In this document: positions 10,357 through 16,495 of the stretch, piece after piece
Layout of the letters: every line of letters begins with the position of its first letter
Position numbering within the stretch: position 1 is the stretch's first letter
Assembly (NCBI GenBank): GCA_017435905.1
Contig: JAFSEB010000071.1
Coordinates: forward strand, 8 to 64,007
Source: Clostridia bacterium
GTDB taxonomy: Bacteria > Bacillota > Clostridia > Christensenellales > CAG-138
Direction of reading: 5' to 3'
DNA: 64,000 bases
Program-made: the position numbers and the translations under genes
Notes under the pieces: generated by a model
What the model was told of the DNA's origin: nothing
The model's input: only the letters and a program-made list of their open reading frames with translations
Databases searched by the model: none

Positions 10357-10592
10357 GACCGTTCCTCCTTCAGAGAAATAACAAATGGTATCCGGTGACA
10401 GCATACAGTAAAGGTGTTGCGGGTGTCAAGTAAGATGTATTAAGAAACGGCACAGCGTTGCCGCAAAGACCGTGCTTGCATTCCATGCTGCACACGTCTC
10501 GCCTGTGCCGCAAAATCCGGCCGCTAAAAACGCTCCACCGGAGCGTTTTTGCCCTCCGGGCACACGGCTTTGACTCCCTTCTTCTGTATAAC

Positions 10593-10632
10593 CAAAGGAA
10601 AACACCACCCTTTCGGGTGGTGTTTTCCTTTG
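10593..10632. terminator. Strong hairpin, probably the original tmRNA terminator displaced by the cassette
   Basis: caaaggaaaacaccaccc-tttc-gggtggtgttttcctttg, perfect 18-bp stem. Confidence 0.8.
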
Positions 10633-10713
10633 TCTATGGGCTATAAAAAAGATATTTTTGGCGTTTTGCTTATGAATTCGAACTCTCGCAAATCTAGTGC
10701 AACCATATTGTGA

Positions 10714-12384
10714 TTATTTGGATTTTTTGAGTTTTTCTCTAGCGCATACAGGGCAACCGTTTCCGTTGCTTCTGTTGTTTATTGTCGTTTCCCACTCATG
10801 TCCTTGGCCGCACTTCCACCATACTTTCTTATTGCTATTAGGCAATACATCCATAGGCGTTAATCCGTTGTTCTTTTCGTAGTTCCATTCATCTGCTAAG
10901 GTTGGATTAACTGTATATAAATCATTTTCACCTTTAATGGCGTACCTCCCTACACAATACGGGCATCTACACCCACTATGTCTGCTTGCTATCGTCGCTT
11001 GCCATTCGTGCCCTTTACTGCACTTCCACCATACCTTTTTATTACTGTTAGGTGCCACATCCATAGGTGTTAATCCGTTGTTCTTTTCATAATTCCATTC
11101 ACTTGCTAAAGATGGATTAATCGTTTGCAAATCATTATCGCCTATCATAGTTTTTACACCCGAGCAAAATGGACATCTGTGCCCTTTGTTTCTAGTATAA
11201 ATTGTCGCTTGCCATTCATGGCCTTTCCCGCACTTCCACCATACCTTTTTATTACTATTGGCTGAAAAATGTTCTGGTTTCAAATTTCCATTCTTTTCAT
11301 AATTCCACTCGTTTGCTATTTCTGGATTAGAAACCAAAATAGATTGTTCTTTTTCTGTATATTCACGCAAATTCTCTATAGCAATCGAGTCTCTTTCTAG
11401 ATCAATATCCACCTTAGTTTCAACGATTTCAGTCAAAATTGCTTCTAGTATTTGGGGTAAATCTTTCTGACCTTTTTGAACGACAAAATCTATGGAACTG
11501 TCATTAAGCGGCTGCAAACCCTCCCTTATCCTGTATAATTTGATTCCATCCATTTTACATTTTATATTTTTTTCTATATCCTTTTGCGCCTTATTTTTAT
11601 GCCAAAGATATCCATCGTATTCGATGGCTATTTTTTGTGATGGAATGTAAATATCTAACTCGTAACCATATTCCTTATATGAATGCACTACCTCTAAACC
11701 GTATTTTTTTAGATAATATACAAGGATATACTCAGGGAAAGACGTTTTCCGTTCAGAAGTGCAAACAGGGCACCCAATCCCTTTATTTCTGTTTGCTATC
11801 GTCGCTTGCCACTCGTGCCCTTTACTACACTTCCACCATACTTTTTTATGGCTATTAGGCGTTACTTCCGTAGGTGTTAATCCGTCGTTTTTTTCGTAGT
11901 TCCACTCGTTTGCTAAAGCTGGATTAACTGTTGATAAATCATTTTCATCTTTAATAGTGTATAGATTTGCGCAGTAGGGACAACCATTTCCATTATTTCT
12001 ACTTGCTATTGATGCTTGCCATTCATGTCCTTTTCTGCACCTCCACCATGCTTTTTTATTGCTGTTAGGCAATACATCCATGGGAGTTAACCCACCGTTC
12101 TTTGCATAATTCCATTCATCTGCTAAAGCTGGATTAACTGTTGATAAATCATTTTCGCCTTTAATAGCGTACCTCCCCGCGCAGTACGGGCACCCACATC
12201 CGCCATATCTGCTTGCTACCTTCGCTTGCCATTCGTGTCCTTTGCTGCATATCCACCAAACTTTTTTATTACTTCCAAGAGTTAGTTGCGCTGGGGTAAC
12301 ATCTGTATTTCTTTCCCAACTCCATTCATCCATAAGTTGAGCATTTTCCGATATATACTGTTTTTCTGACATAGTTTTACTCAA
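10714..12384 (-). CDS. Zinc-ribbon repeat protein (DUF4379-like, 3+3 repeats) with central Vsr/DUF559-like endonuclease domain
   Basis: Six repeats of EW..xKN..L.P..V.PNSNKKVWWKCxKGHEWQA....R..G.GCPxC; centre SFPE...ELDIYIP..KIAIEYDG..WH...D..KN. True start may be ATG 12372 after GAGGAG. Confidence 0.85.
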   Translation of the reverse strand: MSKTMSEKQYISENAQLMDEWSWERNTDVTPAQLTLGSNKKVWWICSKGHEWQAKVASRYGGCGCPYCAGRYAIKGENDLSTVNPALADEWNYAKNGGLTPMDVLPNSNKKAWWRCRKGHEWQASIASRNNGNGCPYCANLYTIKDENDLSTVNPALANEWNYEKNDGLTPTEVTPNSHKKVWWKCSKGHEWQATIANRNKGIGCPVCTSERKTSFPEYILVYYLKKYGLEVVHSYKEYGYELDIYIPSQKIAIEYDGYLWHKNKAQKDIEKNIKCKMDGIKLYRIREGLQPLNDSSIDFVVQKGQKDLPQILEAILTEIVETKVDIDLERDSIAIENLREYTEKEQSILVSNPEIANEWNYEKNGNLKPEHFSANSNKKVWWKCGKGHEWQATIYTRNKGHRCPFCSGVKTMIGDNDLQTINPSLASEWNYEKNNGLTPMDVAPNSNKKVWWKCSKGHEWQATIASRHSGCRCPYCVGRYAIKGENDLYTVNPTLADEWNYEKNNGLTPMDVLPNSNKKVWWKCGQGHEWETTINNRSNGNGCPVCAREKLKKSK

Positions 12385-12390
12385 CTCCTC

Positions 12391-13071
12391 TTAATCTATT
12401 TCAATATGCTTTATATTGTAATCAACATAGTGCTGCATCTCGGGAAACTGAAGATATTCCCTTTTATCCGTTTCTAAATTTCGGAGAACCATTTTTCTGT
12501 CAAATGAAATATAAATTACGTATAAATGTTTTTTAGATGTATCAGTAGTCGCAGACAGTTCTCTATAAATCTTTTTAAGAAGGTCAGATGCTCCTACAAG
12601 TGGAAAACCTTCAAAATCAAAAACAATCGGATACGGAATGAAGAATATTACATTTTCATCCGATTTAGTCTTGCTGATATTGTTCTTCATTTTTTTGAAT
12701 AGATTTAGTTCTATAATCGGCTTTTTTTGATCTCCCACAAAGCAATACTGAAACTCTAACGCTTCATTGTGCAATTCAGTTGTTAATGCACCAGCATCGC
12801 CTTTTCGACCACCAATCATTTGTCCTTGTCTTTTATCAATAGGGATTTTAGCGTCAAATTTCTCTCCAGTAACAGCATCAACGAAATCACACTCGCCGTT
12901 AGCTTGCTTCTCCTGATGGATGTATTGACCGGGAAAAATTGTTTTAGATGCATTCATTAAATCTAAAATAATTCTTTCATAGTTACCTGATTTGATTAGA
13001 TCTTTAATATCGTTATGAATTGTAGAGTAAATGCTGTAATAGTTCTTTAATAAATCCATTTCATTTATCAC
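12391..13071 (-). CDS. Hypothetical protein, putative PD-(D/E)XK nuclease fold
   Basis: 226 aa AT-rich ORF; helix with YE, then GECDFVD...EKFDAK; 6 bp from the downstream gene. Confidence 0.6.
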   Translation of the reverse strand: MINEMDLLKNYYSIYSTIHNDIKDLIKSGNYERIILDLMNASKTIFPGQYIHQEKQANGECDFVDAVTGEKFDAKIPIDKRQGQMIGGRKGDAGALTTELHNEALEFQYCFVGDQKKPIIELNLFKKMKNNISKTKSDENVIFFIPYPIVFDFEGFPLVGASDLLKKIYRELSATTDTSKKHLYVIYISFDRKMVLRNLETDKREYLQFPEMQHYVDYNIKHIEID

Positions 13072-13094
13072 TTCAGCAAAAATAATATTTATCT

Positions 13095-13123
13095 ATTATA
13101 TCATATTTCTGCATTTCTTTCAA
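13095..13123 (-). promoter_or_regulatory. Near-consensus sigma-A promoter inside the cassette
   Basis: TTGAAA-17-TATAAT with TG extension (tgatataat). Confidence 0.7.
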
Positions 13124-13298
13124 TTCCTACTCAAAATGCTATAAAAAAATAGACTTTTACGAGAGTTCAAGTCTGTTCTGTGAAAAACACCTTTTTTGTA
13201 CATTCAAATCGATAACCGAAATTTTGCCCATAAAAACAGAAAAAGCCCTGATAAAATCAGAGTTTTTCTGTGGCTATATCTTTTTTGTAGCCCTTTGA

Positions 13299-13650
13299 TG
13301 GTGGAGACGAGGGGAGTCGAACCCCTGTCCGAAAACCCGTCCACAAGACTTTCTACGAGCGTAGCCGCTGTTTTGTCATTCCCTCCATCCTGCCCCCAAC
13401 GGCAGGGTCAGGACTTTGGTAGCTTCATAAGATCCCACCTGCGGCAAAGCTTACGCAGGCTGGTTCCCCACATTATTGACGCCCGTTGACCCGGTCGTGG
13501 GCAACCGGGGACGGACGGTCACTGCTTAAGCAGCGACGGGTACGAAATTAGATTCGTCAGTTAATTTTTAATTCCCGTTTTTAACGAAGCACGGGGCTTC
13601 GGCTCGCTTATCCGGCTTCAGCGATCCCCGTCGAAACCATTTACGCCCCC
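13299..13650 (-). ncRNA. ssrA: tmRNA; predicted tag (A)DESNFVPVAA
   Basis: 5' GGGGGCG..GGUUUCGAC; 3' GACAGGGGUUCGACUCCCCUCGUCUCCACCA; G3-U acceptor pair; tag frame 13558-13526 ending GCU GCU UAA; adjacent to smpB. Confidence 0.97.
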
Positions 13651-13690
13651 ATAAAGCGCCGCCGTACCCTTGCGGCGCATACAGGCTTTT

Positions 13691-14167
13691 TTAGTAATCC
13701 GCATTCTTCATGCGGCGGTCGATATCACGCTTGGCATCACGCTCTGCGATGCTGTGGCGCTTATCGTAAAGCTTTTTGCCCTTTGCCACCGCCAGCTCCA
13801 TCTTCACAAGACCATCGCGAAGGTAGAGTCGAAGGGGGATCAGGCTGTAGCCATCCGCCTGGGCAAGAGCGTGGAGCTTGCGGATCTCCTGCTTGTGCAG
13901 CAGCAGCTTCCTTTGGCGGAAAGGATCCGCATTAAAGATGTTGCCCTGCTCATAGGGACTCACATGCATGCCCACGATGAATGCCTCGCCGTTCTTGATC
14001 TGGGCATAGGAATCCTTGAGATTCACCTTGCCTGCACGGATGCTTTTTACCTCCGTACCCACCAGTGCAAGACCGCATTCGTAAGTATCTTCGATGAAAT
14101 ACTCATGCCGTGCTTTGCGGTTTTCCGCGATCTGCCTGACGCCTTTTTTGATCGGCAACACATTCAC
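13691..14167 (-). CDS. smpB: SsrA-binding protein
   Basis: [36 protein letters not shown]; start may be TTG 14158. Confidence 0.97.
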
Positions 14168-14206
14168 CTCCTTTTCGGGTTATCCAAAGCGGTATTGTTT
14201 ATTATA

Positions 14207-16495
14207 CTATTTTCCTTTGCGCTTTGCAACTTTGCCCGCACGGTTTGTGCGCCGTTCTTTCCGCCCTGCCGGTTTTTCCTTTTTCCGTTTCGGATAAGGA
14301 GCACTTTTCTTCCCGACAGAAGACGGTTTTGCACTCTTTCTTTCGCTCTTCCCCGTCTTCCCCGGCTTTTCCTGTTTTTCCGGGATCAGTTCAAGCTCCA
14401 CCCTGGCATTTGCCATATCGACGCCCGTCACACGCACCTTGACAGAGTCGCCAAGGCGATAGGTACGGCCGCCGTTTTTTCCGCTGAGGCGATAGTTTTT
14501 CTGATCGATGACGAACCCATCCCCGGGAATGGAGGCGATGCGCACCATGCCCTCCACGGTGTTCGGAAACTCCACAAACAACCCGAACTGTGTCACGCCG
14601 CTGATGATGCCTTCCTCCACCGCACCGATGCGGCTGAGCATATATTCTGCCTTTTTGAGATCATCCGCCGCACGTTCCGCCTCCATGGCAGCAAGCTCAC
14701 GGTCGGAGCAGTGCTGCATCATATCGGGAAGATCCGCATCGTATCGGTCGGCACGCTTTTTCGTCATTTTGCCGTGCATGATCTCCTTGAGCATGCGGTG
14801 CGCCACAAGATCGGGATAACGGCGAATAGGCGAAGTAAAATGGCAGTAGTGCTCCGCCGCAAGGCCAAAGTGACCGACGCAATCCGCCGCATAGCGTGCT
14901 TTCTTCATGGAACGCAGCACGACACGGCTCACCACGCTCTCCTCTGGCGTACCCTTTGCCTTTTCCAGCATCCGCTGAAATACGATGGGACGCACACGGC
15001 CCGTATTCTTAAGCCCGTAGCCCAGCGTATGCAAAAAGGCATTGAGATCCTCAAGCTTCGTTTCATCCGGCTTCTCGTGGATGCGGTAAGCAAAGGACAA
15101 ACCGAGATCATCCGCATGTTTCGCCACAGTCTCGTTGGCGGCGAGCATGAACTCCTCGATCATGCGCTCTGCGCTTCCACGCTCCGCTGCCATTACATCC
15201 ACCGCTTTTCCTTTTTCATCAAGGGTGATCTTCGCTTCCGGAAGTTCAAAATCGATAGCACCCCGTTTCACCCGTTTTGCATGCAGGATCTCCATGAGTT
15301 CACGCATCTCACAGAGCATGGGCACAACATCCTCATAGCGCTTGCACAGCGCCGTATCCCCGTCAAAAATAGCGTTAACGTCATCATAGGTCATCCTGTG
15401 TGCGGTTTTAATGACGCTCTCCGCAAAGCGGTGAGAAAGGATGCTGCCGCTTTCATCGATCTCCATAAAACAGGAGAGCGTCAGCTTCTCGGTGCCTTCC
15501 GTTAAGGAGCAAACGCCGTTTGAAATATCCGGCGGGAACATGGGCAGCACCCTGTCCGGGAAATATACGCTCGTACCACGCTTATATGCCTCTGTATCAA
15601 GCGCCGTGCCTGTTTTGACGTAATGGCTCACATCTGCGATATGAACGCCGAGAAGCCGGTTTTCGCCGTTTTTTGTAAGGGATACCGCATCGTCAAGATC
15701 CTTTGCATCCGCACCGTCGACGGTGATGATCTGCATACTGCGAAGGTCTTCCCTTGAAGCAGCAGCTTCCGGTGAAAGGGGCTTATTGAGCTGCTTTGCA
15801 TACCGCAGGGCTGCCTTTGAAAAATCCACGGGCAGGTCGAGCCGTTTGATAATGGAAAGGATATCCGTGCCCGCTTCGTTCCTGCCGCCGATGATCTCTT
15901 CGATCTCGCCCATCATCGGGCGGCGCCCGTCACCGTGCTGCGTGATCCTGACGACGACCTTATCGCCATGGCGCAGCTTCTTTTCGGTGGGACGGAACAG
16001 CAGCACATCCTCCGCAATGCGGGCATCATCCGGAATGACGTATCCGAATTCATCCTCCCCACGTTCATATGTGCCCACAAGGCGTGTCAGTGCACGCTCT
16101 GCGATCAGCACTACCTCTGCCTCCGGTGCACCGTTGCGGCCGATACGGGGCGTTTCCCGCACCCATACCTTGTCGCCGTGCATAGCGCCTCGCAGATCGG
16201 CTGCTGGGATGTAAAGATCGCTTCCGCCTTCCTGCGGAATGAAAAAGCCAAAGCCCCTTGCATTGCCCTGTATCCGCCCGTAGCGAAGACCGCTTTGCTC
16301 GGGAAGGGCAAGCTTTCTCTTACGGGTCAAAAGAAGCTTTCCGCCCGCCAGCATTTTGCCGACAGAGGTCATTGCCTCCTCCTGTTCCGTTTCATCGAAC
16401 ATGGTAAAAAGCGTTTCCTGCTCAATGGGGCACCCGGCATCCCGAAGCGCTTCCCTGATGCGCATTTCCATTGTGACCGTTTCCGTGTTGTTCAC
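14207..16495 (-). CDS. rnr: Ribonuclease R
   Basis: TVDGADAKDLDDA, HFTSPIRRYPDL, S1 domain, basic tail; between secG and smpB. Confidence 0.96.
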   Translation of the reverse strand: MNNTETVTMEMRIREALRDAGCPIEQETLFTMFDETEQEEAMTSVGKMLAGGKLLLTRKRKLALPEQSGLRYGRIQGNARGFGFFIPQEGGSDLYIPAADLRGAMHGDKVWVRETPRIGRNGAPEAEVVLIAERALTRLVGTYERGEDEFGYVIPDDARIAEDVLLFRPTEKKLRHGDKVVVRITQHGDGRRPMMGEIEEIIGGRNEAGTDILSIIKRLDLPVDFSKAALRYAKQLNKPLSPEAAASREDLRSMQIITVDGADAKDLDDAVSLTKNGENRLLGVHIADVSHYVKTGTALDTEAYKRGTSVYFPDRVLPMFPPDISNGVCSLTEGTEKLTLSCFMEIDESGSILSHRFAESVIKTAHRMTYDDVNAIFDGDTALCKRYEDVVPMLCEMRELMEILHAKRVKRGAIDFELPEAKITLDEKGKAVDVMAAERGSAERMIEEFMLAANETVAKHADDLGLSFAYRIHEKPDETKLEDLNAFLHTLGYGLKNTGRVRPIVFQRMLEKAKGTPEESVVSRVVLRSMKKARYAADCVGHFGLAAEHYCHFTSPIRRYPDLVAHRMLKEIMHGKMTKKRADRYDADLPDMMQHCSDRELAAMEAERAADDLKKAEYMLSRIGAVEEGIISGVTQFGLFVEFPNTVEGMVRIASIPGDGFVIDQKNYRLSGKNGGRTYRLGDSVKVRVTGVDMANARVELELIPEKQEKPGKTGKSERKSAKPSSVGKKSAPYPKRKKEKPAGRKERRTNRAGKVAKRKGK

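Follow-up and report, generated by a model that had tools for sequence, protein, structure and literature searches.

What does a nuclease framed by two arrays of zinc-binding repeats do directly behind a bacterial transfer-messenger RNA (tmRNA) gene, and do these repeats read DNA? The question is raised by a gene of a Clostridia bacterium (Christensenellales; CAG-138; assembly GCA_017435905.1). The window, which is the whole stretch of DNA that was analyzed, comprises 64,000 nucleotides of contig JAFSEB010000071.1 (positions 8 to 64,007 of the forward strand). The gene codes for a protein with three DUF4379 repeats, a central domain of the Vsr/EDxHD nuclease fold and three further DUF4379 repeats, and it shares a small cassette with one upstream open reading frame (ORF). 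The explanation that we favor, at somewhat less than an even chance, is a methylase-free defense DNase that derives from a homing endonuclease and whose repeat arms add sequence preference through short tip helices.

Domain Architecture and Predicted Structure

Six stretches of the protein matched the Pfam family PF14311 (DUF4379; E value 1.9e-131; 428.7 bits against a gathering cut-off of 24.5). The repeat cores are spaced by 70, 70, 199, 70 and 70 amino acids, and the zinc ligands C-x3-H...C-P-x-C are conserved among the homologues. The region between the two arms was recognized less readily by sequence. Residues 223–288 matched REase_MTES_1575 in Pfam with an E value of 6.4e-5, under the cut-off of that family, the match of the nuclease part to TIGR00632 (Vsr) was weak (E value 0.0075), and a sequence search of the Protein Data Bank with the nuclease alone gave nothing meaningful. 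Strong PHROG matches of the middle part were to endonuclease and homing-endonuclease families. Known modified-base reader domains of type IV restriction enzymes include SRA, PUA/EVE and wH. No known domain of this kind exceeded its cut-off in Pfam, and PUA_4 was matched with an E value of 0.017 over 14 residues only. The reading frame comprises 556 amino acids from a TTG codon. An ATG at residue 5 (position 12372) gives a protein of 552 amino acids and is the likelier start; the protein deposited in the Atlas begins at that residue.

An AlphaFold2 model was calculated from 86 homologues (mean predicted local distance difference test score 90.2, predicted template modeling score 0.50). The individual domains are confidently modeled and their placement relative to one another is uncertain. 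In the model each repeat consists of two short helices, a beta-hairpin that carries Cys and His ligands, a five-residue helix which forms the tip, and the CPxC motif. The variable tip thus lies on a helix in all six predicted repeats, as the first-pass annotation had assumed, and the six tip sequences listed there match ours exactly (Table 1).

Structural comparison revealed a Vsr fold for the nuclease domain (residues ~205–318), with all closest matches above our trust level of Z 8. Vsr (1cw0) was matched with Z 8.7 and a root-mean-square deviation (rmsd) of 2.8 over 101 aligned residues, and I-Bth0305I (3r3p) with Z 8.1 and rmsd 3.6 over 95; further Vsr-fold matches were 3hrl (Z 8.6) and 1vsr (Z 8.5). 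E218, D244, E255, D257, G258, H262, K272 and R285 are identical in all 86 aligned homologues, and D269 in 83 of them. We infer that E218, D244, E255, H262 and D269 form the catalytic Glu/Asp/His set, the residues having been mapped to the motif without superposition. The nuclease evolves under strong purifying selection (median dN/dS 0.077; dS was computable in 25 of 64 comparisons). The nuclease is very probably active. Modular zinc repeats around a Vsr/DUF559-like nuclease, the core of the earlier description, are consequently borne out by the six PF14311 stretches, the fold and the intact catalytic residues. A homodimer prediction for residues 140–410 scored 0.00 and bears neither way.

Variation and Selection of the Repeat Tips

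A homology search yielded 7984 matches among 7999 scored candidates, with lengths that step by about 70 amino acids. Each arm holds approximately one to seven repeats. The symmetry that the first-pass annotation had seen in the 3 + 3 arrangement is not a family trait, as only 17 of 73 complete genes have equal arms; these repeat counts are approximate, since the pattern used misses repeats of odd spacing.

For a census of the tips 883 repeats of standard spacing were collected, without requiring the Arg. The Arg is nevertheless present in 876 of them, so that a near-invariant Arg with varied neighbors holds for the whole family. The position before it (−1) is filled from a narrow polar alphabet, N, S, H or D, in 783 repeats, with K in 9 and T in 14, and position +1 is N in 643. 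The census comprises 398 distinct five-residue tips. Positions −2, −1, +2 and +4 show an entropy of 2.4–3.1 bits, with some scaffold positions equally variable, and tip positions covary with z up to 12, a value uncorrected for kinship. With few variable positions on a helix in a fixed scaffold, the array may be likened to code-bearing arrays such as TALE and C2H2 proteins.

The ratio of nonsynonymous to synonymous polymorphism (pN/pS) was 0.45 for tips and 0.14 for scaffold in 140 pairs of repeats; these pairs were picked on scaffold identity with the Arg required, which deflates the scaffold values. A second comparison corrects for this: here pairs were picked on the nuclease, and tip pN/pS was 0.40–0.52 overall. 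In orthologous nuclease-adjacent repeats (23 and 49 pairs) pN/pS was 0.15–0.31 at position −1 and 0–0.11 at position +1. Position −1 differs between repeats, and the low values in orthologues indicate that it is kept within lineages. In this small sample it behaves like a specificity residue.

Reshuffling of Repeats

The first-pass annotation had also pointed to the resemblance of the 1-2 and 5-6 repeat junctions and had taken it for recent shuffling or conversion. The likeness of the proteins is real, with 38 of 44 amino acids identical. At the DNA level 112 of 132 nucleotides are identical (dN 0.07, dS 0.77), and the resemblance is thus due to purifying selection on old copies and not to recent conversion. 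Between all repeat pairs within the gene dS is at least 0.86, the longest exact DNA run common to two repeats measures 36 nucleotides (repeats 2 and 3), and the highest DNA identity between repeat cores is 0.80. The dS values of the junctions and of the repeat pairs rule out recent gene conversion inside this gene.

Across the family repeat number and arms are reshuffled. Repeat number varies freely among near-identical nucleases. In the 92% identical protein P0084 the first arm and the nuclease are nearly the same and the tip half of repeat 6 is replaced. Near-identical internal repeats occur in 3 of 65 other genes, and repeats of at least 95% identity are common to 5 of 2040 distant gene pairs.

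Two variants of the architecture were observed besides. P0020, P0034 and P0082 contain 9–11 DUF4379 repeats and no detected nuclease motif, and may be nuclease-free binders like CapR. In L104 (5446–7086) and L094 the DUF4379 nuclease is extended beyond its last repeat by a C-terminal tail of ~75 amino acids, which by eye resembles a small helix-turn-helix DNA-binding module.

The Cassette at the tmRNA End

The gene and the upstream ORF of 226 amino acids fill a 2.7-kb cassette of 36% GC in a region of about 55% GC (Table 1). The corresponding empty site was found in a genome of the same genus (G007), where the terminator hairpin follows directly after the tmRNA CCA. Neither of the two ORFs of the cassette is a methylase. 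The number of sigma-70-type sites (8) does not exceed the chance expectation (9.3), and the promoter in Table 1 is given as a candidate.

Table 1: Coordinates of the repeat nuclease gene, its cassette and the flanking host elements.
Feature	Position	Strand	Description
tmRNA gene (ssrA)	13299..13650	(-)	intact, downstream of smpB; 3' CCA is the insertion site
Cassette left end	13160..13298	(-)	starts at the base after the tmRNA CCA
Left end, outer inverted-repeat copy	13276-13293	(-)	
Left end, terminator-like hairpin	13246-13262	(-)	
Left end, inner copy	~13160-13201	(-)	
Candidate sigma-70-type promoter of the two-gene unit	13095..13123	(-)	11/12, extended -10
Upstream partner gene	12391..13071	(-)	226 amino acids
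Repeat nuclease gene	10714..12384	(-)	556 amino acids from TTG; 3 DUF4379 repeats, Vsr/EDxHD nuclease, 3 DUF4379 repeats
Repeat 1	12160..12369	(-)	tip ASRYG at 12202-12216
Repeat 2	11950..12159	(-)	tip ASRNN at 11992-12006
Repeat 3	11740..11949	(-)	tip ANRNK at 11782-11796
Vsr/EDxHD-fold nuclease and helical linker	11353..11739	(-)	residue conservation, fold match
Repeat 4	11143..11352	(-)	tip YTRNK at 11185-11199
Repeat 5	10933..11142	(-)	tip ASRHS at 10975-10989
Repeat 6	10723..10932	(-)	tip NNRSN at 10765-10779
Cassette right end, attR-like	10633..10689	(-)	inverted copy of the left motif and T-loop-like octamer
Host tmRNA terminator hairpin	10593..10632	(-)	displaced by the insertion

The right-end motif also occurs after a Resolvase/Recombinase/Zn-ribbon gene in L167, L223 and L254; an unbiased scan for the motif gave a recombinase in 2 of 66 matches. 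This position after large serine recombinase genes points to the cassette, which has no recombinase of its own, as a probable non-autonomous remnant of recombinase-bearing elements. The genome itself contains three recombinase genes, and the end motif was not found at them in the loci examined. Contigs with near-identical pieces, which came from four DNA runs in as many studies, showed no clean excision joint; one such piece (X10) differs at 7 of 1277 nucleotides over positions 10664–11940. Insertion at CCA, conserved ends, the missing recombinase and the frequent restriction-modification (RM) cargo liken the cassette to what we take to be its class, cis-mobilisable remnants of serine-recombinase integrative and conjugative elements (ICEs) at tRNA 3' ends. 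The end family of the cassette was not found among the papers listed by a single literature search.

A palindromic repeat element together with the terminator occupies positions 10467–10632 of the window. Several copies of it are present in the genome (C60, C42, C36, C5, C35, C54), mostly just downstream of tRNA genes, and it is also found in G007.

Homologous Loci and Sister Cassettes

Homologues of the gene share its position. Of the 66 loci that had sufficient upstream DNA, 37 have the gene start at most 650 nucleotides from a tRNA or tmRNA 3' end, compared to 9 of 1486 genes of the bacterium's own genome. Near-identical arrays are found at different tRNAs (Leu in L001, Tyr in L019) and different arrays at one tRNA. 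The former observation shows that the arrays do not encode the insertion site and rules out that the tips encode the tRNA target. A heuristic search for RM or methyltransferase signals within 3 kb of the homologues was negative at all 80 loci. Neighboring genes of the homologues include AbiTii, HEPN_AbiU2, HEPN and SduA, and most neighbors belong to no family. Among the 80 loci three copies are split and one is nuclease-less, and a fragment was found in L094. Matches over the cut-off occur in 14 of 151 genomes of the order, mostly as one locus per genome. Viral contigs contained no close relative, and the closest phage relative is 36% identical over the nuclease. The match in Listeria phage LP-048 is a free-standing gene for 210 amino acids, and the 8.4 kb inspected there contain neither a tRNA nor an intron.

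Many homologues reside in a second type of cassette, most of them at tRNA-Pro (L002, L006, L010, L033, L035, L050, L067, L079), with ~175 common bases upstream and 50–125 downstream.

The ends of the cassette were used to find its relatives. A scan with the left-end motif gave 84 matches, 77 of which lie right after a CCA. Their cargo was RM in 30 cases, ICE-like in 12, DUF4379/CapR in 10, other Vsr-like in 3 and other in 12, and 17 were too short to tell. RM identity was confirmed by PADLOC and Pfam on subsets; in this tally L094, L109 and L121 represent fragments, and the contigs of L001, L019 and L054 account for three of the DUF4379 loci.

Several sister elements were recorded. On contig C24 of the same assembly (G000, 11225–14275) the same pair of ends encloses another low-GC cassette at tRNA-Ala(GGC); its products are a 421-amino-acid protein whose C-terminal part has a Vsr-like motif and an uncharacterized protein of 319 amino acids. 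Vsr-like cargo resembling that of C24 in L112, L126 and L137 has no Pfam match. The same cassette in L131 (1130–2917) and L136 (8639–10435) holds mixed CapR/DUF723/DUF4379 array proteins of ~600 amino acids which are closer to the phage homing-endonuclease type. Larger ICE-like elements begin with the same left end in L084, L088, L107, L129, L130, L150 and L154; such elements sit at tRNA-Met and tRNA-Gln and contain genes for a C5 methyltransferase and for DUF4314. In L207–L286 the right-end motif often stands behind another hairpin-type left sequence, with a tRNA within 2.2 kb in 35 of 66. Right-end motifs that lack cargo represent recombination scars or miniature elements, which are widespread in gut Clostridia.

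The Upstream Partner Gene

The 226-amino-acid partner has 130 homologues in which D62, D73 and K75 are invariant, and it belongs to no Pfam or PADLOC family. Its best fold matches (VIA-align) ranged from Z 6.6 to 7.6 and include the CdiA-CT nucleases (Z 7.5–7.6) and PA4535/DUF1780; Foldseek gave no match at E ≤0.001. CdiA-CT nucleases have tRNase activity. The invariant residues and the weak fold matches suggest a putative PD-(D/E)XK nuclease. In sister cassettes the partner precedes unrelated nucleases, and near-identical nucleases have different partners. A fixed toxin-antitoxin-like pairing of the two genes is unlikely because partners shuffle, and the partner is a candidate defense effector in its own right.

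Comparison to Known Systems

Phage intron proteins in which CapR/DUF4379/DUF723-like repeats are joined to EDxHD/Vsr have been described as a large unrecognized outgroup of homing endonucleases, and their repeats have been proposed as DNA-binding modules (PMC12350094). They share with our protein the combination of several zinc repeats and an EDxHD/Vsr nuclease. Their nuclease is C-terminal and they reside in phage introns, whereas the clostridial nuclease is central, with arms on both sides, and lies in a chromosomal tRNA-end cassette. I-Bth0305I (3R3P; PMC3239194) has the same Vsr-type catalytic fold with conserved acidic residues and His. It differs by N-terminal NUMOD2/helix-turn-helix modules before a C-terminal nuclease, in place of DUF4379 modules flanking a central one, and it is encoded by an intron in phage recA and not between a tmRNA CCA and its terminator. 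The protein would work in the manner of these enzymes, but by module type and location it falls outside the EDxHD homing family.

A related zinc repeat is known from CapR, which binds a specific phage promoter (PMC8096241), and repeat deletion and swapping have been reported for related zinc-finger arrays (PMC10448857). The latter paper has DUF4397 in the text and DUF723/4379 in the legend, which makes the match to DUF4379 uncertain. CapR and the T5orf172 arrays described in these two papers resemble our protein in the beads-on-a-string arrangement of a related repeat, in swapping and in anti-phage domestication; CapR, however, is a nuclease-free repressor with CxxC...CxC ligands, and T5orf172 is a different nuclease. 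Marseillevirus "putative restriction endonucleases" combine four DUF4379 domains with a restriction-endonuclease domain (PMC5513546). The likeness consists in DUF4379 repeats plus nuclease; these are giant-virus genes and their function is putative. The trypanosome proteins mt-SAF33 and mS66 (6SGA, 7AOR) share the fold of the repeat (7pua_Fd aligned over 70 residues with rmsd 1.0 and Z 11.9) but have no nuclease, and are part of RNA-protein assemblies. Type II RM systems possess a cognate methyltransferase, which the cassette does not. Our literature search, in which supplements including those of defense screens were outside the scope, turned up nothing published on the clostridial form with its central nuclease, on the tips or on a role in defense. 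The protein is made of known parts in an unstudied arrangement.

Function of the Repeat Nuclease

According to the explanation that we favor, a single-gene nuclease would have been domesticated from Vsr/EDxHD homing-endonuclease stock. Its arms would lie along the DNA with each module presenting its short tip helix. The invariant Arg may hold on to the backbone or to a base, and base preference would be added by the preceding residue (N/S/H/D) together with the neighboring ones. The summed site would be so long as to occur only rarely in the host, which would make a methylase unnecessary. The central domain would then nick or cut incoming phage or mobile DNA, and gain, loss and swaps of repeats between alleles would retune the target. 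The cassette may be moved by a serine recombinase acting in trans, or by homologous recombination between its conserved ends. A stricter version, in which every DUF4379 module reads a short DNA word via the residues around the Arg and the protein is a natural bacterial zinc-finger nuclease, is doubtful in our opinion. The same doubt applies to its wider form, in which arrays of 5–11 modules, retuned by arm swaps, serve gut Clostridia as methylase-free restriction enzymes in tRNA-end cassettes.

A number of observations weigh against a defense enzyme that reads sequence. No PADLOC model fits the repeat nuclease (a spurious DruE3 stretch with an E value of 0.0013 was the only match), and only 3 of 25 partner proteins scanned gave PADLOC matches. 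tRNA ends gather any mobile gene, and sister cassettes hold non-defense cargo, too. The 66 matches of the right-end motif show a weak defense bias (RM 5, Vsr/DUF4379 4, recombinase 2, other 55); many of them are cargo-less scars 180–290 nucleotides behind tRNAs, and the 36 proteins at these loci gave four weak or partial PADLOC matches. Diversifying selection, for which a site-by-site check of the tips had been proposed, is not seen: no tip position has a pN/pS clearly above 1 (highest 1.01), selection being purifying or neutral, and positions −2, +2 and +4 with 0.5–0.8 behave like exposed scaffold sites. Among solved structures, DUF4379-like folds were found only in mitoribosomal proteins of trypanosomes (Z 11.9 for 6sga_Fd), one of which has an Arg at the place of the tip Arg; the tip Arg may therefore be structural and the ligand may be RNA. 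Finally, most specificity of I-Bth0305I comes from its nuclease domain (PMC3239194).

The gene could instead be a free-standing selfish homing-type endonuclease. It would cut alleles of the cassette or ICE in which it is missing, or the empty tRNA-end site, and spread by break repair, with the neighbor gene dragged along and no benefit for the host. The pairing of domains is indeed known from phage intron and free-standing homing endonucleases (PMC12350094; PMC10448857), and the PHROG matches, the strong positional bias, the fact that the nuclease changes partners and is not confined to one cassette type, the lack of methylase signals and the existence of broken copies all fit. But one array can be found at several tRNAs and one tRNA can have different arrays, the cassette has its own recombinase-type ends, and no host gene or intron is interrupted. 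The close relatives are chromosomal and not phage-borne, homing needs frequent encounters of donor and recipient, and the gene is under strong purifying selection with few decayed copies. We regard this possibility as unlikely, though one to be reckoned with. The first-pass annotation had left homing-like and anti-phage roles side by side; the context, a cassette slot often filled by RM systems, favors the anti-phage role.

A defense nuclease without any code is rather unlikely in our estimate. The repeats would then be a largely non-specific avidity scaffold or a scaffold that senses modification or structure; tip variation would for the most part reflect neutral drift of an exposed helix, and the source of specificity would be the Vsr core or phage DNA that is modified, mismatched or replicating. 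The overall tip pN/pS below 1 and the free variation of repeat number are in agreement with this, and N, S, H and D are encoded by Asn codons and their single-base neighbors. The missing methylase would fit modification dependence, there are weak fold matches to the 5-hydroxymethylcytosine-specific PvuRts1I/AbaSI and to Vsr, and the modules of I-Bth0305I provide a precedent for largely non-specific binding (PMC3239194). Drift does not readily explain that position −1 avoids the other residues within one step, K and T, and is kept in orthologues, or that tip positions covary; furthermore, no known modified-base reader domain was found over its cut-off in Pfam. That the array acts as a sensor or regulator by binding RNA such as tRNA, tmRNA or phage RNA, and perhaps controls a toxic partner, is very unlikely. 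The mitoribosomal proteins as best structural matches of the repeat and the CdiA-CT matches of the partner point in this direction, but the latter stay below the trust level of Z 8, partners are not fixed, and Vsr-fold enzymes and CapR act on DNA. The domesticated defense DNase with sequence preference in its arms remains, tentatively, the explanation that we favor.

Significance

The repeat nucleases form a very large family for which no functional study was found in the literature searched. As it occupies the same cassette slot as RM systems, the gene qualifies as a concrete candidate for a new anti-phage system in gut Clostridia. Allelic series found in nature which differ by single repeats or tips (P0001 and P0084; L009, L010, L011 and L053) make the question of a DNA code in CapR/DUF4379-type modules directly testable. 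If there is no code, the enzyme would be one more domesticated homing nuclease. If the code is true, these modules would join C2H2 fingers and TALEs as a third scaffold for modular DNA recognition, its code could be worked out from thousands of natural variants, and DNA binding could be programmed with a new scaffold.

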